Source of the DNA: an uncultured bacterium
GTDB lineage: Bacteria; Arandabacterota; Arandabacteria; Arandabacterales; Arandabacteraceae
Length of the DNA stretch: 63,609 bases
Reading direction: 5' to 3'
NCBI GenBank assembly: GCA_964356335.1
Contig: CAYHHI010000017.1
Location: forward strand, 1-63,609
Under the pieces are notes generated by a model. That model saw nothing but the letters and a program-made list of their open reading frames with translations. It ran no database searches and was not told where the DNA came from. The translations under genes were made by a program, and so were the position numbers. This document shows, one piece after another, positions 5,118 to 13,969 of this stretch. How positions within the stretch are numbered: position 1 is the stretch's first letter; each line of letters opens with the position of its first letter.

Positions 5118-7004
5118 GTGGCCGGCGCCGGTTCCAGGAATTTCATGGTACTCGATCGGAGAGGTGCCCAATTGCAGAAGCAGTCGGTAAGAGTCACCTT
5201 CAAGCCTGACTCCAAAGAGATCTGGGTCGTGTCGGGCTCCACAATAAAGGAAGCCCTCTTCGCCGCCTCGATTCCCATTTCGCTGCCCTGCGGGGGCCAT
5301 GGCAGATGCGGTAGGTGCCTCGTATTCGTCGAAGGCAGAGTATCGACGCCGGGTGAAGACGAGATCCGGAAAATCCCACCGCGCATGAAGAGTGCAAGGC
5401 TTGCGTGCCTGGCAAGGATTGAAGGGGACACCTTGGTAACGGTACCGCCCTCATCAAGAGTCGCAATTCAGAAAATCGCTGCCCGGGGTGTTACATCCGG
5501 GAAATATCGCTTCAAGCCGAACGTGATCAAGGTCTTCCTTGGCAAGATGAAGCCACCGGCGATGCGCACCCTTGAGAAAGACTATGGCATCCGGATTGAA
5601 GACATAGCCCTCAGCAGGATGACCGATCCGGATCTCATGGATACAGCGCTCCGGGTGGACCCCGAGTGGGGATTGGGGCTGCATTCCAATGCCACGGTCA
5701 TTGCCATGAAGAATGAGATAATCGGCTTCGAGGCTGGAGACACCTCCTCCGAATGTTACGGGGTCGCCCTTGACATCGGAACCAATACCGTTGTCTGCTC
5801 GCTTGTTGATCTCACCACCGGTAGGGAGCTGGGGGTCGCCTCCACAATCAATCCTCAGGTCATGCACGGGGACGATGTCATCTCTCGCATAAGGTTTGCG
5901 AAAACTTCGGGTGGGCTTGAGCTCCTGCGTCTTGAGATCGTAAACCTGATCAACGGTCTCGTTGAAGAGATCGCTCGAAGCCTCAAACTCGAAAGGAAGA
6001 GAATCTATCTATGCAGCGCCGTCGGCAACACCGCCATGCAGCACATTCTTGTGGGCGTCTCGCCGGTCGATTTGGGGAGAGCTCCTTACCGGGCGCGGAT
6101 CGTCTCGTCGGTTGAAACGCTTGCTTCCAGGGCCGGTATGAAAGCACATCCCGACTGCAGGCTGGTGATGCCGCCAGTGATAGGAGGATTCGTCGGGGGC
6201 GATTTGGTGGCTCTGATTGTGGCGCAATCACTCCACAAACGCAAGCGGCCCGTCATAGCGGTTGATCTTGGAACCAACGGCGAGATAGTGCTGGCATCGA
6301 ACGGCAAGATTGCGGCCTGCTCGACGGCTGCCGGTCCCGCATTCGAGGGAGAACGCATAAGTGCGGGCGTGAGAGCCATTGATGGTGCGATCGAGGACGT
6401 GCGGATCATGAGGAGGGGTGTGAGACTCAAATGCATAGGCGACGCAAGACCGGTCGGCCTATGCGGCTCGGGCCTCCTTGCGGCGGTGGCCGAGCTGGTG
6501 CGCGTCAAAGTAATCGATTCGACAGGCAGGATCCGGACGAAGGAAGAGATCGAGGATGCGATGCTTGCCAGGAGAGTGTTTGATGGCGAGCGAGGCCGTG
6601 AGTTCAGTGTGTGCCACAAGCCGTCAATCAGATTGAGGCAAGGCGACATAAGAGAGGTGCAGCTCGGTAAAGCAGCGATATGCGCAGGCATAAAAGTGCT
6701 ATCAAACGCTGTCGGGATTGGACTAGATGAGATAAGTGACATTCTTATTGCCGGCAGTTTCGGCTCTGCCCTGAAGCCTTCGAGCATAAGAGCGATAGGG
6801 CTTGTTCCGCATGTGATGAAGGCGAGGATCAGAGTGATAGGCAACTCGGCTATTGAAGGTGCAAAGATCCTGTTGACCTCACAGCAAGCAAGTGAGGAAG
6901 CAAAGGAGATTGCGGCTCGCGCTGAGCATGTCGAGCTCTTTTCACGCCCCGAATTCAAGGATGAGTTCTACGCCAGCATGGGTTTTCCGGAGCCCTCATC
7001 CTGA
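5118..7004 (+). CDS. 2Fe-2S ferredoxin plus ASKHA ATPase (DUF4445), RACo/RamA-like reductive activator of corrinoid proteins
   Basis: CGGHGRCGRC...RLAC; DIGTNTV; GDDVISRI; GGFVGGD; DLGTNGE; AAGPAFEG; GLCGSG; AGSFG. Confidence 0.9.
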   Translation: MAGAGSRNFMVLDRRGAQLQKQSVRVTFKPDSKEIWVVSGSTIKEALFAASIPISLPCGGHGRCGRCLVFVEGRVSTPGEDEIRKIPPRMKSARLACLARIEGDTLVTVPPSSRVAIQKIAARGVTSGKYRFKPNVIKVFLGKMKPPAMRTLEKDYGIRIEDIALSRMTDPDLMDTALRVDPEWGLGLHSNATVIAMKNEIIGFEAGDTSSECYGVALDIGTNTVVCSLVDLTTGRELGVASTINPQVMHGDDVISRIRFAKTSGGLELLRLEIVNLINGLVEEIARSLKLERKRIYLCSAVGNTAMQHILVGVSPVDLGRAPYRARIVSSVETLASRAGMKAHPDCRLVMPPVIGGFVGGDLVALIVAQSLHKRKRPVIAVDLGTNGEIVLASNGKIAACSTAAGPAFEGERISAGVRAIDGAIEDVRIMRRGVRLKCIGDARPVGLCGSGLLAAVAELVRVKVIDSTGRIRTKEEIEDAMLARRVFDGERGREFSVCHKPSIRLRQGDIREVQLGKAAICAGIKVLSNAVGIGLDEISDILIAGSFGSALKPSSIRAIGLVPHVMKARIRVIGNSAIEGAKILLTSQQASEEAKEIAARAEHVELFSRPEFKDEFYASMGFPEPSS

Positions 7005-7060
7005 CCCTCTCCCAGAGGGAGAGGGAAACCCGCCCTGATTGCTCTCAGCAAGGAGAGGGA
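6993..7060. repeat. BoxC-like palindromic intergenic repeat plus a degenerate second copy; possible terminator
   Basis: CCCTCATCCTGA-CCCTCTCCC-AGA-GGGAGAGGG (perfect 9-bp stem 7005-7025), followed by CCCGCCCTGATTGCTCTCAGCAAGGAGAGGGA. Confidence 0.6.
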
Positions 7061-7284
7061 ATAGGCAGGGGGAACAATGTGACAAGTGCGGAATTAGGCC
7101 CAGCCGAGTAAGGGTTTTCACCCAGACGAGGTCCCGAGAAGGCGCCGACCCCGGCGCCCGTTCTTGCTCCTTCTTCGTTGCGTTCATTTCGAACCATGCC
7201 ATAAATCCTTTACTTTCAATCCTCTGAGGCGCAAGGCGAATTGGTCGCCAGGCTCGCGGCGAGTCTTACCGCTTTGGGCCGTCC

Positions 7285-7301
7285 CTGGCATGTCAGTTGC
7301 A
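7285..7301 (+). promoter_or_regulatory. Sigma-54 (-24/-12) promoter
   Basis: CTGGCATGTCAGTTGCA matches YTGGCAYG-N4-TTGCW with exact GG-N10-GC spacing. Confidence 0.8.
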
Positions 7302-7325
7302 CCTTATGTTTACCGACAACTGAAT

Positions 7326-7457
7326 AGAAGTACAAATGGAGTTCCCTGCTATGCTCGTGACTTGCCAGGTCGTGGGCTGATCTCCTAAAAAAACGATCGA
7401 CGAGTTTCACGATTGCCTCGCGCACGGCATTTCAGTGGGGAACTCCATTTGTATTCT
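7326..7457 (+). ncRNA. Candidate structured RNA or leader: long rod-like inverted repeat
   Basis: Perfect 16-bp inverted repeat TACAAATGGAGTTCCC (7331-7346) / GGGAACTCCATTTGTA (7438-7453), with nested pairings ATGC/GCAT, CGTG/CACG, TCGTG/CACGA and GATC/GATC. Confidence 0.5.
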
Positions 7458-7469
7458 GGGACATTCCGA

Positions 7470-7499
7470 TTGACACCCCGCAAAGCAATCTGCTACCTT
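7470..7499 (+). promoter_or_regulatory. Sigma-70-type promoter for the BMC operon
   Basis: TTGACA-18 nt-TACCTT with TGn extended -10, 65 bp before pduL. Confidence 0.55.
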
Positions 7500-7564
7500 C
7501 TTCACTGGTCACACGAAGCGCCAGCCCGGCCCCGAGCGACCCTGGCCGTAGAGGTTCGAGTTCA

Positions 7565-8221
7565 ATGGAAGATCTTGATCTTGGCAGGCTTACCGATGAG
7601 GTCGCCAGACGGGTGCATGCGAGGATCATCTCCTCCGACCTTGAGGGCAGGATAGTCGTGCCTATCGGTGTATCTGCAAGGCACATGCACCTCACGCGCG
7701 AAGTGCTCGAGGGTCTTTTCGGCAAGGGACATGACCTCGGGGTGTCTCGGCCCTTGAGCCAGGGAGGTGAATTCGCCGCCGAGGAGACAGTCACGATCGT
7801 GGGATCGAACGGACGAGCAATCGAGAAGGTGAGAATCCTTGGCCCTCTGAGGCCATTTGCCCAGGCGGAGCTCGCAAGAAGCGACGGCTTGAGACTGGGG
7901 CTCGATCTTCCCGTTAGAAAAACCGGAGACCTGAATGGCACCCCTGGGCTCACAGTTGTCGGCCCGTGCGGCACCGTGGTCCTGAAGGAGGGAGCGATCC
8001 GCGCCACCCGGCACATCCACATGAGCCAAGATGATGCCGGAAGATTCGGCCTTCGGGATGGCCGGATTGTCAGGACAAGAGTCGCCGGCGTAAGGGCGGT
8101 CACTTTCGAGAACGTCGAGGTCAGGGTGGACGAGAGATTTATGCTTGACTTTCATATAGATACTGATGATGCTAACGCTTCCGGGGTGGATACGGGCTGT
8201 TTTGCTGAGGTTATTGTGTAG
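7565..8221 (+). CDS. pduL: PduL-type phosphate acyltransferase with N-terminal encapsulation peptide
   Basis: PIGVSARHMHL, LSQGGEFAA, VRILGPLR, RHIHMS, FHIDTDDANA. Confidence 0.95.
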   Translation: MEDLDLGRLTDEVARRVHARIISSDLEGRIVVPIGVSARHMHLTREVLEGLFGKGHDLGVSRPLSQGGEFAAEETVTIVGSNGRAIEKVRILGPLRPFAQAELARSDGLRLGLDLPVRKTGDLNGTPGLTVVGPCGTVVLKEGAIRATRHIHMSQDDAGRFGLRDGRIVRTRVAGVRAVTFENVEVRVDERFMLDFHIDTDDANASGVDTGCFAEVIV

Positions 8222-8240
8222 GACGAGGAGGTGATTCCCC

Positions 8241-8516
8241 TTGCCAGAAGCTCTTGGCAAGATAGAGACCAAGGGTTTTGTGGCAGCTGTTGAGGCTGCG
8301 GATGCGATGGTCAAGGCTGCCAAGGTTGAGCTCACCAAATATGAGAAGATAGGTGGCGGCTACGTCACGGTGCTGGTGCGCGGAGACGTCGGAGCGGTCT
8401 ATGCGGCTGTCGAGGCGGGTGCAAGAGCAGCCCAGAAGGTAGGTGAGCTTGTGAGCACCCACGTTATCCCGAGGCCCGACGAAGCCCTTGAAGATACGAT
8501 GCTGACCTCAGAATGA
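8241..8516 (+). CDS. BMC-H hexameric shell protein (EutM/PduA family)
   Basis: [26 protein letters not shown]...[18 protein letters not shown]...HVIPRP; TTG start with SD GAGGAGGTG. Confidence 0.96.
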
Positions 8517-8577
8517 CGTCAATGAGATCAAACGGGACGATCACGAACACTATCACTAGGGAAGGGGGTTAGGTAAA

Positions 8578-8892
8578 TTGGTTGAAGCAGGAGACGGAAT
8601 TTACAGAGAAGCCCTAGGGCTGATAGAAACACGAGGCTTTGTGGCCATGGTTGAGGCCTCAGATGCCATGGTCAAGGCCGCCAAGGTCATTCTTGTCGGT
8701 TACGAGAAGATAGGTGGGGGCTACGTGACGGCGATCGTCAGGGGCGATGTGGCGGCGGTAAAGGCTGCAACCGAGGCCGGTGGGGCCTCAGCAAGCAAGG
8801 TCGGGGAGCTCGTATCCGTCCACGTCATCCCGAGACCCCATCCGAATCTTGAGGACGTGCTTCCAATAGGTAAGCTCCAGAAGTCGAAGTAG
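8578..8892 (+). CDS. BMC-H hexameric shell protein (EutM/PduA family)
   Basis: [24 protein letters not shown]...KIGGGYVT...[10 protein letters not shown]...HVIPRPH. Confidence 0.96.
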
Positions 8893-8933
8893 CCTGGGGA
8901 TAACTTGGGTCTACGAGCGAGGCGGAGGCAGAC

Positions 8934-9227
8934 TTGATAGTCGGCGAAGTTGTCGGTACGCTTGTCGCATCGAGTAAAGAAGAGCGCCTGCGAGGGCTCA
9001 AGTTTCTGATCGTCAAGATCGTCAACGTGGACCTCAAGCCGATTGGCCAGTTCCTGGTCTGTGCTGACGCCGTGGGTGCGGGCTACGGTGAGGTGGTGCT
9101 CTGTGCACAGGGAAGTTCGGCTCGACTGACGGACAAGACCAAGGATAACCCTGTTGATGCGGTGATATGCGGCATCATCGATACGATCGAACTCCAGGGC
9201 AAAGTGGTCTATGAGAAGTATGCTTGA
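8934..9227 (+). CDS. BMC-P pentameric vertex protein (EutN/CcmL)
   Basis: GEVVGTLVASSK...DAVGAGYGEVVL...GSSAR...PVDAVICGIID. Confidence 0.95.
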   Translation: MIVGEVVGTLVASSKEERLRGLKFLIVKIVNVDLKPIGQFLVCADAVGAGYGEVVLCAQGSSARLTDKTKDNPVDAVICGIIDTIELQGKVVYEKYA

Positions 9228-10644
9228 CGAGCGAAGCATAGGCACGATCGTCGAAGAGGTCCTCAAGAAGCTGCGAACCTACGGCGTTGGTGCGCCTGCC
9301 TCGGTGTCGGGCGGCGGGAAGCGGGGAGCATTCGGATCGATCCAGGAAGCCGCAGAGCGCGCGGAGACAGCCCAGCGTCTTTTGGTTGAGGTGCCGCTTG
9401 AGACCAGGAAGAAGATCATCGAAGCCATGCGGCGGGTCTCATGCGAGCATACGGAAGAGCTGTCGCGGATGGCAGTTGAGGAGACCGGGCTCGGGAGGCT
9501 TGAGGATAAAGTAAAGAAGAATCTCCTTGCCGCCACAAGGACTCCAGGCGTGGAAGACCTTGTGCCCGATGCGGTCTCCGGCGATCATGGCCTCACGATA
9601 ATAGAAAGAGCTCCCTATGGCCTGATAGGCTCGATCACACCTTCAACCAATCCCTCTGAAACCGTGATCAATAATGCTATTGGCATGGTCGCAGGCGGGA
9701 ATTCGGTAGTCTTCAATCCGCATCCCAGTGCCAGGATGACGACGCTTCGCACAATCCAGCTTCTTAATTCAGCGATCGAGGCCGAGGGTGGCCCTCCCAA
9801 CGTTCTCGCATCAATAGAAGAGCCAAGCATCGAGTCTGCCCAGGCCTTGATGAAGCATGAGAAGGTGAGGTTGCTTGTTGTGACCGGTGGTGGTGCCGTC
9901 GTCCGTGAGGCCATGAAGTCAGGTAAGAAGGTGATCGCAGCGGGGCCCGGAAACCCTCCCGTGGTTGTGGATGAAACGGCGGACCTCGATAGCGCAGGGC
10001 GGCATATCGTCAACGGGGCCTCGCTGGACAACAACATTGTCTGTATCTGCGAGAAGGAAGTCATTGCAGTTGAAAGGATAACCGACCAGCTCAAGAAGAA
10101 GATGCTTGCGAGCGGCGCAGTTGAAATCAAAGGGGGAGACGTCGAGAGGCTCCACGCGCTCATCATCAAGGAGGACAGGGGTCCCAGCAGACATGCCGTG
10201 ACAGCAAGAGAGTTCGTCGGCAAGGATGTCTCGCATTTCTTGCGGGCGATAGGCATAAAGAGCGAGACCCAGGCGAAACTCATAATATGTGAAACGCCTG
10301 CGTCGCATGCCTTTGTCTGGACCGAGCTGCTGATGCCCGTCCTGCCGATTGTGCGAGTGCGTGACGTCGATCAAGCAATCGGATTTGCCAAGGAGGTTGA
10401 GCAGGGCTTTGGGCATTCGGCCATGATGCATTCCACCAACATAACCAAGCTTTCCCAGATGGCCAGATCCATCGGGACAACCATATTTGTGAAGAACGGG
10501 CCTTGCTATGCGGGGCTCGGTTTTGGCGGCGAGGGTTACACAAGCTTCACAATCGCGAGTCCTACGGGCGAAGGGCTCACTTCTGCACGCACTTTCACCC
10601 GTATGAGGAAGTGTGTACTCGTTGATTATTTCAGGATTGTCTGA
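9220..10644 (+). CDS. CoA-acylating aldehyde dehydrogenase (EutE/PduP family) with N-terminal encapsulation peptide
   Basis: EETGLGR, ITPSTNPSET, FNPHP, VTGG, AGPGNPPVVVDETAD, DNNIVCICEKE, FTIASPTGEG; start 9220 (or 9211) overlaps the BMC-P stop. Confidence 0.95.
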   Translation: MLDERSIGTIVEEVLKKLRTYGVGAPASVSGGGKRGAFGSIQEAAERAETAQRLLVEVPLETRKKIIEAMRRVSCEHTEELSRMAVEETGLGRLEDKVKKNLLAATRTPGVEDLVPDAVSGDHGLTIIERAPYGLIGSITPSTNPSETVINNAIGMVAGGNSVVFNPHPSARMTTLRTIQLLNSAIEAEGGPPNVLASIEEPSIESAQALMKHEKVRLLVVTGGGAVVREAMKSGKKVIAAGPGNPPVVVDETADLDSAGRHIVNGASLDNNIVCICEKEVIAVERITDQLKKKMLASGAVEIKGGDVERLHALIIKEDRGPSRHAVTAREFVGKDVSHFLRAIGIKSETQAKLIICETPASHAFVWTELLMPVLPIVRVRDVDQAIGFAKEVEQGFGHSAMMHSTNITKLSQMARSIGTTIFVKNGPCYAGLGFGGEGYTSFTIASPTGEGLTSARTFTRMRKCVLVDYFRIV

Positions 10645-10655
10645 GGTCGCTTCCA

Positions 10656-11996
10656 TTGGCTAAGGATTTCCCTTTCTCAAGAAGTGAGATCGTAAAGAAG
10701 ATTTTCGAGGCCGGAGTGGTCGGCGCTGGCGGTGCGGGCTTCCCCACGCATGTCAAAGCCCAGGCAAAGGCCGAGATAGTGATCGCCAACGGCTGTGAGT
10801 GTGAACCGCTGGTCCAATCCGATAGGCACGTGCTTGAGAGCGCCGCGGACGACGTTTTGGAAGGGCTTAGGATCATGATGCTGGCCACCGGGGCTTCACG
10901 CGGGGTTTTTGCGGTCCGGGAGTCCTACGCTGGTATCATCGAAGCCCTGCGGAACCGAGTGAAAGGCGCCAGAGGCATCGAGATCGTGGGAGTGCCAGAC
11001 AACTACCCGGCCGGAGATGAACACCTCCTTGTCTATGAGATAACCGGGAGGGTGATACCGCAGGGAGGTATTCCGCCCCAGGTTGCAGCAGTGGTTTGCA
11101 ATGTCAACACGCTTGCCAACGTGAAGCGCGCTGTCGGCGGGAAGCCTGTCGCCGCACGGGTGGTCTCGGTGTGCGGGGACCTGCCCAGACCGGCAATCGT
11201 GGAAGTGCCTGTGGGAACCACGGTCATAGACGTACTCAGGCTGACAGGCAATGATGCCGGCCTTGAGACCAAGGGAATTCTGCTTTCGGGCGTTATGATG
11301 GGCGAGCTTTGCGAGGATACATCACGGCCGATTGACAAGCGGACGGGCGCCGTTGTGGTCTTGCCACGCGATAATGAGGTGATCGTGAGAAAGTCCCTTC
11401 CCATTGAGACCATCGTGAGGAGAGCTGCCTCGGTCTGCTGCCAGTGCACCTTCTGTACCGAGCTCTGCCCGCGTCATCTGATGGGGCACGACATAACGCC
11501 TCACAAGATCATGCGCTCGGTTGGCTGGACGCGGGTCTTTACTCCGGATATCGCCGGTGCGCTTTTCTGCTCGGGTTGCGGGCTCTGCGGCGTATATGTT
11601 TGCCCGATGCTGCTCTCGCCTGATAGGATAAGCTTCAGGGTAAGGGCCGAGATGGCCAGGCGAGGCATGAAGGTGGAGCGAGAGGGAGCGCGAGATGTGG
11701 AAGGAGTGAGGGCGCACCGCCTGGTGCCCCACCGTAGAATCGTTGAGAGGACCGGGCTCGCACCGTATGAACGGGATATCACCTTTGCCGGAGCCATAGA
11801 GCCTGACAGGGTGAAGATTCCCCTGGCTCAGCATTCCGGCATTGCGGCAAGGCCCGTCGTCAAGATCGGGGATTCCGTGCGTAAGGGGCAGATAGTAGCA
11901 AGCATCAACTTGGGCGAGATCGGTGCAAACGTCCACGCGAGCATCGATGGCGTCGTCACAGGCATCAATCACAGCATAGCGATCGAGAAGCGATGA
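10656..11996 (+). CDS. pduS: PduS-like flavin/Fe-S oxidoreductase (RnfC-related, SLBB domain)
   Basis: GVVGAGGAGFPTHVK, ANGCECEPL, YPAGDE, CCQCTFCTELCP, CSGCGLCGVYVCP, C-terminal ANVHASIDG. Confidence 0.88.
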   Translation: MAKDFPFSRSEIVKKIFEAGVVGAGGAGFPTHVKAQAKAEIVIANGCECEPLVQSDRHVLESAADDVLEGLRIMMLATGASRGVFAVRESYAGIIEALRNRVKGARGIEIVGVPDNYPAGDEHLLVYEITGRVIPQGGIPPQVAAVVCNVNTLANVKRAVGGKPVAARVVSVCGDLPRPAIVEVPVGTTVIDVLRLTGNDAGLETKGILLSGVMMGELCEDTSRPIDKRTGAVVVLPRDNEVIVRKSLPIETIVRRAASVCCQCTFCTELCPRHLMGHDITPHKIMRSVGWTRVFTPDIAGALFCSGCGLCGVYVCPMLLSPDRISFRVRAEMARRGMKVEREGARDVEGVRAHRLVPHRRIVERTGLAPYERDITFAGAIEPDRVKIPLAQHSGIAARPVVKIGDSVRKGQIVASINLGEIGANVHASIDGVVTGINHSIAIEKR

Positions 11997-12550
11997 CCGA
12001 GATCATAGAGGCCATAGGGCTTGTTGAACTCAATAGCATCGCGCAGGGTATCACGACTTGCGACGAGATGGTCAAGGTCGCCCCCGTCACACTGATGCTT
12101 GCGATGACGATCTGTCCCGGCAAGTACATTTCGCTGGTCGGAGGGGATGTCTCCTCAGTCAACTCATCGGTGAAGCGCGGTGTTGAAACTGGCGGAGCAT
12201 TCGTCGTGGATAGCCTCTTCATTCCCAATATCCACGAACAGGTCTTTCCCGCAATAATGGGCACGAGTGCTCCGAGAGTGATCCGCTCGCTGGGTGTGAT
12301 TGAGACTTTTTCCGTGGCATCCGCCATCATCGCCGGTGATGGCGCGGCGAAGGCCGCAAAGATCGAACTCATTGAACTGAGGCTTGCGCAGGGACTCGCG
12401 GGGAAGTCCTTTGTCACCCTGACGGGTGACGTGAGCGATGTCACAGCAGGCGTCCGCGCCGGGGTGGCCCTCATAAAGGAAAGCGGCATGTTGGTGAAAG
12501 ACGTCATCATTCCTCGGCCTCACGAGGATCTGAAACGGAAGATCGGCTGA
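11993..12550 (+). CDS. pduT: BMC-T trimeric shell protein, PduT-like
   Basis: Tandem BMC domains; AIGLVELNSIAQG, ICPGKY (pore Cys), LRLAQGLAGKS, IIPRPH. Confidence 0.9.
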   Translation: MTEIIEAIGLVELNSIAQGITTCDEMVKVAPVTLMLAMTICPGKYISLVGGDVSSVNSSVKRGVETGGAFVVDSLFIPNIHEQVFPAIMGTSAPRVIRSLGVIETFSVASAIIAGDGAAKAAKIELIELRLAQGLAGKSFVTLTGDVSDVTAGVRAGVALIKESGMLVKDVIIPRPHEDLKRKIG

Positions 12551-12553
12551 CGC

Positions 12554-12817
12554 ATGCATATAGCGAAAGTCATAGGTACCTTGGTGGCGACCAGGAAAGT
12601 GGATTCCCTGCGTGGGCAGAAGCTCCTGGTGATCCAGCCCTTGAACCCCAAGAAAGAGGAACGAGGACACCCCGTCGTTGCAGTCGACACGGTTGGGGCC
12701 GGTCCGGGCGACATAGTCTACTTCGTCAGAGGTAGGGAGGCTGCGCATGCCCTGGATGACAAATTCAACCCGGCGGATGCAGCCATCATGGGTATTGTTG
12801 ACAGAATAGACATCTGA
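12554..12817 (+). CDS. BMC-P pentameric vertex protein (EutN/CcmL)
   Basis: AKVIGTLVATRK...AVDTVGAGPGD...GREAA...DAAIMGIVD. Confidence 0.95.
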   Translation: MHIAKVIGTLVATRKVDSLRGQKLLVIQPLNPKKEERGHPVVAVDTVGAGPGDIVYFVRGREAAHALDDKFNPADAAIMGIVDRIDI

Positions 12818-12905
12818 GCCCTCGTACTGAGAGGCGTCATAGAGGGACCCGTATCGTGAAGCCTGTGCGCCTAAGAGCATTGTCAGGCGAGTTGGCTGGA
12901 GCGTC

Positions 12906-13190
12906 ATGTATATAGGCAAGGTAGTCGGGGACGTAGTCTCGTCGGTGAAGTACGAATCCCTCAAGAATCATAAGATTCTTATTGTCCAGCCACTCCAGCC
13001 GGACGGCACGCCAGTGGGCGAGCCGATACTAGCGATAGACATGGTGGATTCAGGGACGGGTGACATTGTACTCATAGTGGATCAGGGAACCGCCGCACGC
13101 CAGGTATTGGAAATGCAGTACCCCACAATAAGGACCTTGATACTTGGCATTGTGGACAGGATAGACTTTCACAAAGGCTCGGCGCGATGA
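12906..13190 (+). CDS. BMC-P pentameric vertex protein (EutN/CcmL)
   Basis: GKVVGDVVSSVK...AIDMVDSGTGDIVL...GTAAR...PTIRTLILGIVD. Confidence 0.93.
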   Translation: MYIGKVVGDVVSSVKYESLKNHKILIVQPLQPDGTPVGEPILAIDMVDSGTGDIVLIVDQGTAARQVLEMQYPTIRTLILGIVDRIDFHKGSAR

Positions 13191-13969
13191 GATCTGTCGT
13201 CTCGATTGATGATGCTCGCGAAGGCATTATCCAGGTTGGGCGGAGAATGTACGAGCGCGGTTTCGTGGCTTCCAATGATGGTAACGTGAGCATCAGGGTC
13301 TCAGATGATCGAGTGGTAGTTACTCCCACGGGGATCAGCAAGGGCTTTATGGCAAAGGGCGATCTTGTCCTTGTTGATATGAAGGGTGAGAAGACCAGCG
13401 GCAAGCGCCAGCCCACGTCTGAGATCAAGATGCATCTCAAAGCCTACGAATTGAGGAACGATATTCAGGCGGTTGTCCATGCCCATCCGCCTTACGCCAC
13501 CGGTTTTGCAGTCGCAGGAATCCCTCTGGCTCAGTGTGTTCTGCCCGAGGTGATCCTGACAATCGGATCGGTTCCGCTGGCCCAATATGCAACGCCGTCA
13601 ACCGACGAAGTCGCGGAGTCCATCGCGCAGGTGGTAACGAAGTGCGACGCCTTCCTCCTCAAGAACCACGGGGTCATGACTGTTGGCGGTGATGTCCTGA
13701 ATGCTTATCATAAGCTCGAGACGGTTGAACATTTCGCAAAGATAGCCTTCGTGGCGAGGCACCTGGGCAGGATAAGCCCGCTTGCTCATGACGAGGTGAT
13801 GAAGCTTCTTGCGGTGAGGGAGAAACTTGGGATCAAGGGCCCGACGCCTGGATGCCAGGAATGTGGTGCATGCCTGCCTCGTGAAGAACTCGATCAAGCA
13901 GGTTTGGTTAAGATAATTGTCGATGAGGTGGTGAACATCCTAAGGGAAGGCAAACATGCGATGGAGTGA
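13187..13969 (+). CDS. Class II aldolase (FucA-like) with C-terminal encapsulation peptide
   Basis: DGNVS, TPTGISKG, PTSEIKMH, VVHAHPPYAT, LKNHG zinc-binding motifs; C-terminal LDQAGLVKIIVDEVVNIL. Confidence 0.92.
   Translation: MRSVVSIDDAREGIIQVGRRMYERGFVASNDGNVSIRVSDDRVVVTPTGISKGFMAKGDLVLVDMKGEKTSGKRQPTSEIKMHLKAYELRNDIQAVVHAHPPYATGFAVAGIPLAQCVLPEVILTIGSVPLAQYATPSTDEVAESIAQVVTKCDAFLLKNHGVMTVGGDVLNAYHKLETVEHFAKIAFVARHLGRISPLAHDEVMKLLAVREKLGIKGPTPGCQECGACLPREELDQAGLVKIIVDEVVNILREGKHAME

Follow-up and report, generated by a model that had tools for sequence, protein, structure and literature searches.

The 63,609-nucleotide (nt) contig CAYHHI010000017.1 (assembly GCA_964356335.1, forward strand; referred to below as the window) of an uncultured bacterium of the family Arandabacteraceae carries a long rod-shaped hairpin at positions 7326-7457, placed between a sigma-54 promoter and a bacterial microcompartment (BMC) operon. 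We consider it highly probable that this hairpin belongs to a small-RNA gene that is transcribed by sigma-54 RNA polymerase and is related to 6S RNA. The RNA is a new clade-specific family and not a member of the Rfam 6S family RF00013; it is best filed as a shortened 6S variant. For the fuller account, a stand-alone gene as described here whose product is a shortened 6S relative with RNA polymerase as its preferred partner, the chances on either side seem to us evenly balanced. The single step that the RNA acts on RNA polymerase is put forward tentatively and with more doubt than trust. The parts of the gene and of its predicted product are as follows.

7286..7301, + strand: sigma-54 promoter of the -24/-12 type, TGGCAT-N5-TTGCA, a textbook site.
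7312..7327, + strand: predicted transcription start at about 7311-7314, followed by the single-stranded 5' leader motif ACAACTGAATAG (7316-7327).
7326..7457, + strand: rod-shaped hairpin, the putative small-RNA body, whose consensus has four helices with 41 base pairs in total, capped by an apical loop of about 26 nt.
7336..7380, + strand: 14-codon open reading frame (mini-ORF) in the 5' arm, judged non-coding.
7364..7385, + strand: invariant block GCCAGGTCGTGGGCTGATCTCC, the 5' strand of helices 3 and 4 and the first part of the apical loop.
7402..7411, + strand: 3' strand of helix 4, GAGTTTCACG, likewise invariant; it contains a bulged U and takes part in two conserved G-U pairs.
7447..7464, + strand: T-rich tail covering the 3' end of the stem and the positions behind it.

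The outer arms of the hairpin, 7331-7346 and 7438-7453, form a perfect 16-nt inverted repeat, the only one within 7200-7600, which is lengthened outward by AGAA (7326-7329) and TTCT (7454-7457). Both the repeat and its extension had been described in a first-pass annotation made from the letters of the window, and the inner helices listed there agree with our consensus structure. The 132 nt of 7326-7457 fold as RNA into a single long imperfect rod with -57.8 kcal/mol, compared with -33.4 +/- 3.9 for shuffled sequences (z = -6.26), and none of 200 shuffles was as stable. Comparative evidence for the fold comes from homologues. RNAalifold found 41 pairs in a MAFFT alignment of the 16 orthologous sequences, 9 of them compensatory. 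Among 35 distinct sequences, 18 of the 41 pairs have changes on both sides and 97.4% of the cells form standard pairs, and in the wider family (30 distinct sequences) 27 of the 41 pairs are compensatory; these alignments were fitted to a model and the sequences are related, which biases the pairing and covariation figures toward the structure. The same helices appear in the MAFFT alignment of the 16 orthologues. In controls in which the pairing partners were slid by 1-3 columns, 39-51% of the cells pair, and not one of 500 shuffles matched the covariation observed in the 35 sequences.

As a lone sequence the hairpin cannot reveal its strand, since the minus strand folds almost equally well (-54.2 kcal/mol, z -6.16). 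The family can. G-U pairs make up 213 of its 1395 paired cells on the + strand, reading the other strand would lower the pairing from 97.4% to 82.2%, and the covariance model R1 scores the close orthologues with 137-167 bits on the + strand versus 13-25 bits on the - strand. The G-U pairs and the strand asymmetry of the model thus identify the functional molecule as an RNA made from the + strand, as had been suggested from the G-U pairs of the window alone. An element that works as DNA, be it a miniature inverted-repeat transposable element (MITE) or another mobile foldback, a cruciform or a protein-binding palindrome, would also be expected to show the perfect 16-bp terminal repeat and the nearly equal folding of the two strands. 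It is however difficult to reconcile with G-U pairs that occur on the + strand only, with the asymmetry of the model and with a promoter and a T-rich tail that are conserved in one orientation. The hairpin is moreover present as one full copy in a 3.45-Mb genome and is syntenic in 15 relatives, which led us to reject the MITE that had been named as an alternative. Altogether we regard a function at the DNA level as very improbable.

A DNA search of 61 genomes, the source genome and 60 relatives, recovered the hairpin region from all 12 genomes of the same family, which represent 7 genera, and from 3 of 3 genomes of a second family of the order. In these 15 relatives the DNA identity of 76-87% is restricted to the hairpin and its promoter, and in the 16-sequence alignment promoter, leader motif, hairpin and T-rich tail are conserved while the flanks are not. 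With R1 the RNA was found in 18 of 18 examined genomes of the phylum Eisenbacteria, at 137-166 bits in 16 of them and at 31 bits in two class-level relatives (73-79 bits with the wider model). Scans with exact patterns gave 18 true loci out of 19 in the species collection and 22 out of 22 on metagenome contigs; the remaining match (L047, labelled Planctomycetia) lies inside a gene, has no model match and was dropped as chance. A second clade carries the RNA in 10 of 41 genomes searched around the outlier genome G063, and these 10 are assumed here to be the nearest kin of that outlier. The work adds to the known structured RNAs a family with promoter, covarying structure and tail that is absent from Rfam 15 and present in every searched genome of an uncultured phylum.

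Conservation within the hairpin is uneven. The block GCCAGGTCGTGGGCTGATCTCC is without change in all 16 orthologues, which were gathered by BLAST and not by pattern, and the same holds for helix 4 together with the first nine loop bases, that is, GCCAGGTCGTGGGCTGATCTCC opposite GAGTTTCACG. In the pattern-gathered sets the invariance of helix 4 is partly an effect of ascertainment, because the collection scans required the GAGTTTCACG motif. The apical loop is invariant in its 5' part and variable in its 3' part; the A-rich loop described in the first-pass annotation is present in the window and confined to the source genome and its nearest relatives. The 14-codon ORF that had been seen to start within the 5' arm likewise exists, at 7336-7380, and is not conserved as an ORF: of the 35 distinct homologues, 20 have it with 14 codons, 8 with 9 codons and 1 in a different form, and 6 lack it. 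The variable codons of this ORF alter the residue, and we attribute this variation to the pairing with the 3' arm. A coding function was rejected on these grounds.

The sigma-54 promoter precedes the hairpin at a constant distance in all 40 distinct homologues, 37 of which have the strict pattern and three, class-level relatives, C/G-TGC, and by eye it was also seen upstream in 10 of 10 loci of the second clade. As there are only 70 such sites in the whole 3.45-Mb genome, a conserved promoter at this place is not due to chance. The genome encodes RpoN (contig C13) and 13 activator genes with a Sigma54_activat domain, none of which is located on the contig of the hairpin. The transcription start at about 7311-7314 is predicted on the assumption that it has the customary distance of about 12 nt from the -12 GC. 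Between it and the hairpin lies the leader motif ACAACTGAATAG, which hardly varies among the orthologues (16 of 16). The shortest variants have almost no distance left between the predicted start and the hairpin. Further upstream a candidate control region was found.

7088..7123, + strand: candidate upstream activator sites, motif yTGrGGnnTyTnACCC at 7108-7123 and a weaker copy, seen by eye, at about 7088-7103.

Gibbs sampling placed the 16-nt motif in every one of 27 upstream regions, at a distance of 157-256 bp from the promoter; by eye it is often arranged in tandem. It is a putative activator-binding site. The source genome contains 18 matches to the position weight matrix above a score of 11, and only at the hairpin locus does a sigma-54 site lie within 400 bp. 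This exclusive coupling suggests a dedicated activator for the hairpin promoter, comparable to regulators that serve mainly one small RNA. For the same reason, motif and sigma-54 site being paired at one locus only, neither a regulon nor a signal can be deduced.

At the 3' end, the 16 nt after GGGGAAC contain on average 8.5 T (53%, versus 21% T in the window), and at least 8 T in 27 of 35 sequences. The hairpin thus probably acts as its own intrinsic terminator, to judge from this base composition; class-level relatives have a separate GC hairpin with a T-run instead of the T-rich tail. The neighbourhood downstream and upstream is formed by the following features.

7470..7499, + strand: sigma-70-type promoter with extended -10 (TTGACAC-N14-TCTG-N-TAnnnT) for the pduL/BMC operon.
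7565..8221, + strand: pduL (phosphate propanoyltransferase; Pfam PTAC, E 8e-66), first gene of the microcompartment operon, a neighbour and not part of the RNA.
5118..7004, + strand: gene of a RACo-type corrinoid activase (Pfam RACo_C_ter, Raco_middle, Fer2), the upstream neighbour.

The first-pass annotation had placed the hairpin just after the sigma-54 promoter and just before a second promoter, and both promoters turned out to be conserved. Of 16 orthologous loci, 14 have the sigma-70-type promoter, located 5-108 nt downstream of the hairpin. In one genus no such promoter follows the hairpin, and pduL is 1.4 kb away with convergent ORFs between. Since the pduL/BMC operon has its own sigma-70-type promoter, the RNA is probably a separate unit and not specifically a leader of the microcompartment operon. 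The earlier suggestion of a separate transcript is therefore in line with our findings, in that covariation, the fixed promoter and the downstream sigma-70-type promoter make the element look like its own transcription unit, and in annotation terms the sigma-54 promoter beside the microcompartment operon most likely drives the RNA gene and not the operon.

The gene content around the RNA changes with phylogenetic distance. In a tblastn comparison with 15 relatives' loci (L013-L027) the RACo gene lies upstream in 13, with no RACo match in L022 and L023, and pduL lies downstream in 13, the exceptions being L017 and L018 of genus g6. A molybdopterin oxidoreductase gene is also found upstream of the hairpin. 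After pduL the operon (7565-13969) continues with two BMC-H genes, EutN, genes for an aldehyde dehydrogenase and an RnfC-like flavoprotein, a further EutN and a class II aldolase, and we take it to resemble the sugar-aldehyde compartment of the Planctomycetes-Verrucomicrobia type. The sigma-54-driven copies of the class-level relatives (L066, L067) precede a gene for formiminotransferase-cyclodeaminase, a folate enzyme, and one of these genomes has no PduL match. Presumably this linkage echoes the unexplained 6S-ygfA linkage of proteobacteria. One genome (G017) has three sigma-54-driven copies within 13 kb of its contig C7. In the second clade the RNAs lie 50-75 nt upstream of a conserved gene for a secreted protein without Pfam family.

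These arrangements bear on the possibility that the hairpin is a cis-acting 5' leader or attenuator, so that sigma-54 transcripts would read through into pduL and the BMC operon, the formiminotransferase-cyclodeaminase gene or the secreted protein gene, and the hairpin would set termination, stability or processing. Such a role is favored by the co-orientation of the element with the next gene in most loci and by the second clade, where the RNA stands 50-75 nt before a conserved gene and often has no clear terminator. The canonical 6S RNA of E. coli is also co-transcribed with its downstream gene. Yet the downstream genes are unrelated between the clades, a separate promoter is conserved between hairpin and pduL in 14 of 16 loci, and the class-level relatives have a strong terminator of their own. 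The distance to pduL varies, the one genus has 1.4 kb with convergent ORFs in between, and the paralogue closest to the hairpin RNA (class B, see below) faces the convergent gene guaA and thus cannot be a leader. We consider a leader function unlikely, although it may apply in the second clade. The idea of a leader RNA of the BMC operon in particular, raised in the first-pass annotation, found no support, since distant members adjoin the genes for formiminotransferase-cyclodeaminase or the secreted protein.

The relationship to 6S RNA (SsrS; RF00013) was recognized with covariance models. RF00013 matches 7340-7445 with 39.5 bits (E 2e-6 for the genome), below the gathering score of 46.4, and at E<=10 the source genome contains, besides the hairpin, only the canonical 6S RNA on contig C52 (96.8 bits) as a match. 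Further matches of 40.4, 37.4, 37.4 and 37.4 bits were obtained in two close relatives and in diverged class-level copies, so that the matches come from two subfamilies that have diverged from each other. The alignment with the window spans model positions 1-187 with 83 central positions deleted, which take in the upstream arm and most of the bubble, its 3' strand included, and it places GCCAGGTCGTGGGCTGATCTCC at the helix below the 6S central bubble and at the start of the 5' bubble strand. All other Rfam families, signal recognition particle RNA included, gave chance-level matches only and were rejected. The earlier impression that the hairpin belongs to no recognized RNA family is thus correct insofar as none reaches the Rfam threshold, and has to be revised insofar as the RNA appears as a truncated relative of a known one.

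The reverse comparison gave matches as well. A second covariance model, R2, was built from 30 hairpin-family members of the paralogue classes, with canonical 6S RNAs excluded. It nevertheless recognizes canonical 6S exactly in place in 13 of 15 loci when filters are off (19-34 bits; E between 5e-7 and 4e-3) and also in four whole-genome searches. In the R2 alignments the leader motif (ACAAC-N-GAAUAG) stands directly before the closing stem in canonical 6S too, and the letters of the closing stem are alike on both strands, with 130-143 extra apical nt in the canonical RNA. Canonical 6S genes have sigma-70-type extended -10 promoters at variable distance to the leader motif; therefore the motif belongs to the RNA and not to the promoter. 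All 30 family members carry an unchanged C-G / U-G step, which equals the upper-case CU/GG of the RF00013 consensus, and the sequence of the 6S closing stem and bubble flanks (CU/GG step, GUUCG, CGGCA, CuGA) is present in the hairpin family.

Hairpin RNA and 6S RNA hence share the rod-like shape, the closing-stem sequence and a similar helix adjacent to the bubble, and with the canonical 6S RNAs of these genomes the hairpin additionally shares the 5' leader motif, the U-rich 3' end and reciprocal model matches. They differ in length, about 105-150 nt for the hairpin RNA and about 185 nt for 6S, and in the promoter, which is of the sigma-54 type for the hairpin and sigma-70-type with extended -10 for the canonical genes of these genomes. 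The large central bubble with its two helical arms is absent, and the consensus is one arm capped by the loop of about 26 nt. From these alignments we conclude that the hairpin is a truncated 6S paralogue. It would have kept the closing arm, the helix beneath the central bubble and, from the bubble itself, the beginning of the 5' strand; the upstream arm and the rest of the bubble would have been lost.

Several results weigh against this interpretation, as a 6S relative or as a ligand of RNA polymerase. RF00013 had no match at E<=10 in 15 of 18 loci scanned (13 orthologues, L067 and L035), and every match that it did have to the hairpin family is below the gathering score. The hairpin loci gave no significant match to a sequence-only nhmmer profile of 15 canonical 6S RNAs, so that, on sub-threshold matches and this null result alone, the link to 6S would be weak. 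Model R1 gave no match to the canonical 6S RNA of the source genome. With respect to function, the hairpin is without one of the two helical arms of 6S and without the full central bubble. In vitro work with B. subtilis 6S-1 describes the central bubble and two short arms as the minimal functional 6S (PMC8876501), which renders a canonical 6S-type binding of the hairpin doubtful. With respect to the gene itself, the transcript, its ends and its termination are deduced from sequence. The U-tract in the source genome is interrupted and pairs with the A-rich 5' arm, and several members of the second clade have no clear terminator and stand 50-75 nt before a co-oriented gene, which would fit a leader.

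We propose the following scheme for the RNA as a shortened 6S relative. Sigma-54 RNA polymerase, fired by a dedicated enhancer-binding protein, would make an RNA of about 105-150 nt, built from a short 5' leader (ACAACUGAAUAG), one covarying rod hairpin of about 100-130 nt and a U-rich tail. Judging by the promoter architecture, synthesis would take place solely while an activator fires the sigma-54 polymerase. The transcript would end at its own hairpin and the RNA would work in trans. Neither strand of helix 4 varies, nor does the adjoining loop, and G-U pairs are fixed as in 6S, hence the likeliest partner is a protein that reads this module. Our first-choice partner is RNA polymerase, which might be bound in a partly 6S-like manner, so that a sigma-54 signal would feed back on the use of the polymerase. 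In favor of it, the part that is invariant on both strands, has fixed G-U pairs and is free of covariation is the counterpart of the 6S region that is most conserved and contacts the polymerase.

Alternatively the RNA could act in trans by base pairing, the invariant single-stranded loop start (CUGAUCUCC, anti-Shine-Dalgarno-like) kissing ribosome-binding sites or other mRNA sites and controlling translation or decay, with the 6S-like stem as scaffold and terminator. An apical loop with an invariant 5' part and a variable remainder is consistent with this, as are the GGAG-type Shine-Dalgarno sequences used by the genes here and the lack of a detected Hfq in the genome, which fits loop-mediated pairing. 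Most characterized sigma-54-dependent small RNAs are, moreover, post-transcriptional regulators. No target was found, however: in 14 genomes the loop paired with the pduL start region no better than shuffles did, and only 7 of 55 genomic complements of the loop 9-mer precede the start codon of an ORF of at least 60 amino acids. The invariance of helix 4 on both strands, with fixed G-U pairs and without covariation, also exceeds what a seed needs. We judge base pairing to be a rather unlikely mode of action. The use as a CsrA sponge was dropped, because GGA occurs in the loop of some genera only; the genome has two CsrA genes.

Sigma-54-dependent small RNAs are known in GlmY/GlmZ, Qrr1-5 and CrcZ. 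The hairpin RNA resembles them as a stand-alone RNA gene with a -24/-12 promoter and upstream activator sites, here candidate ones. It has no similarity to them in sequence or structure, 6S being the only Rfam match. Those small RNAs act by Hfq-dependent pairing or by protein sequestration and contain multiple short hairpins, whereas the RNA described here is a single long rod in a genome without detectable Hfq.

6S paralogues of the B. subtilis type are full-length, with a central bubble and both arms, and bind the housekeeping holoenzyme. The Eisenbacteria resemble B. subtilis in having more than one 6S-family RNA per genome, and differ from it in having 2-5 shortened paralogues per genome with differing promoter types, sigma-54 in the case of the hairpin. 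Second 6S paralogues such as 6S-1 and 6S-2 are documented in PMC4793215 and PMC3923129. For minimal 6S-1 constructs, PMC8876501 reports that much of the helical arms is dispensable in vitro; these constructs retain the bubble and both arms, in contrast to the hairpin with its one long arm capped by a loop, and owing to this difference in architecture that work does not predict a 6S-type function for the hairpin.

A likeness by description only exists to Ms1 of mycobacteria, an RNA of about 300 nt in organisms without canonical 6S, while the hairpin-bearing genomes have canonical 6S as well. According to PMC4191392, Ms1 is structured like 6S without being a true 6S and binds core polymerase without the primary sigma factor. 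Our literature searches found no sigma-54-dependent 6S-family RNA; in one candidate paper the ssrS promoter is, in the portion consulted, of the extracytoplasmic function type and not sigma-54 (PMC13492112). Full-text searches gave no description of an Eisenbacteria small RNA, and the sole paper with both terms concerns CsrA.

The hairpin is one of several related RNAs in these organisms. Besides canonical 6S, whose gene is found elsewhere in 15 of the 18 genomes, each genome has 2-5 members of the hairpin family, and the weak R1 matches elsewhere are paralogous hairpin RNAs with other promoters. The source genome contains at least the canonical 6S, C7:65280-65443, C18:39469-39605 and the present hairpin. 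Class B (C7:65280-65443, - strand; L072) is about 150-175 nt long, has a sigma-70-type promoter, is convergent to guaA and is matched by R2 with 71 bits and by no Rfam family. These findings suggest that 6S, which mostly exists as one housekeeping gene and otherwise as no more than two full-length paralogues, can diversify into shortened relatives with different promoters, sigma-54 included. If the RNA still addresses RNA polymerase, it would offer a natural minimal 6S arm for dissecting the contacts between 6S and the enzyme.

Going further, we speculate that in Eisenbacteria and the neighbouring clade 6S has expanded into a gene family answering to different sigma factors and regulators. The half-size sigma-54 member would then be a new class of polymerase-directed riboregulator, docking a 6S-type arm and a template-like loop in the polymerase (core or non-housekeeping holoenzyme), so that a sigma-54 signal retunes global transcription or counteracts canonical 6S. 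The probability of this extended scenario is in our opinion low.

Some further observations concern the related RNAs and their neighbours. The canonical 6S genes of Eisenbacteria (L010, L077-L090) have strong promoters with TTGACA and extended -10 (TGnTATACT/TATAAT); their leader of 20-45 nt holds the motif AAC-N-GAAUA, possibly a 5' processing signal. Class B RNAs have AAUAGCG repeats in the leader, a 6S-like closing stem, two small apical hairpins and a terminator of their own, and relatives of this class were seen at L069, L073, L075, L076, L130-L132, L137-L139, L142, L145 and L146. The RNA at C18:39469-39605 (+ strand; L129, similar L148 and L149) is a weak member of the family (23.7 bits, E 0.02) with a rod fold of -52 kcal/mol. 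Class D (L068 in G014, L070 in G008, L071 in G012 and L141 in G001) is flanked by genes for a HAMP histidine kinase and a Porin_5 protein. It follows conserved CTTAACCC / TTAACAC direct repeats, which resemble response-regulator boxes, and may be a two-component-controlled small RNA or a porin leader.

The protein encoded downstream of the second-clade RNAs is longer than 475 amino acids, has a signal-peptide-like start and is always encoded directly 3' of the RNA. Members share 40-88% identity among themselves and about 40% with a copy in the source genome (contig C2:45100-46450). None of the 70 sigma-54 sites of the genome scan lies near this homologue, a locus that was not itself scanned for the RNA. 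Within the window, upstream of the hairpin, a perfect GC-rich palindrome (CCCTCTCCC-AGA-GGGAGAGGG) occupies 7006-7027 directly after the RACo stop codon; Rfam gave for this region merely a chance-level match to whalefall-1 (E 0.64). A second terminator-like hairpin is located at 7141-7158.

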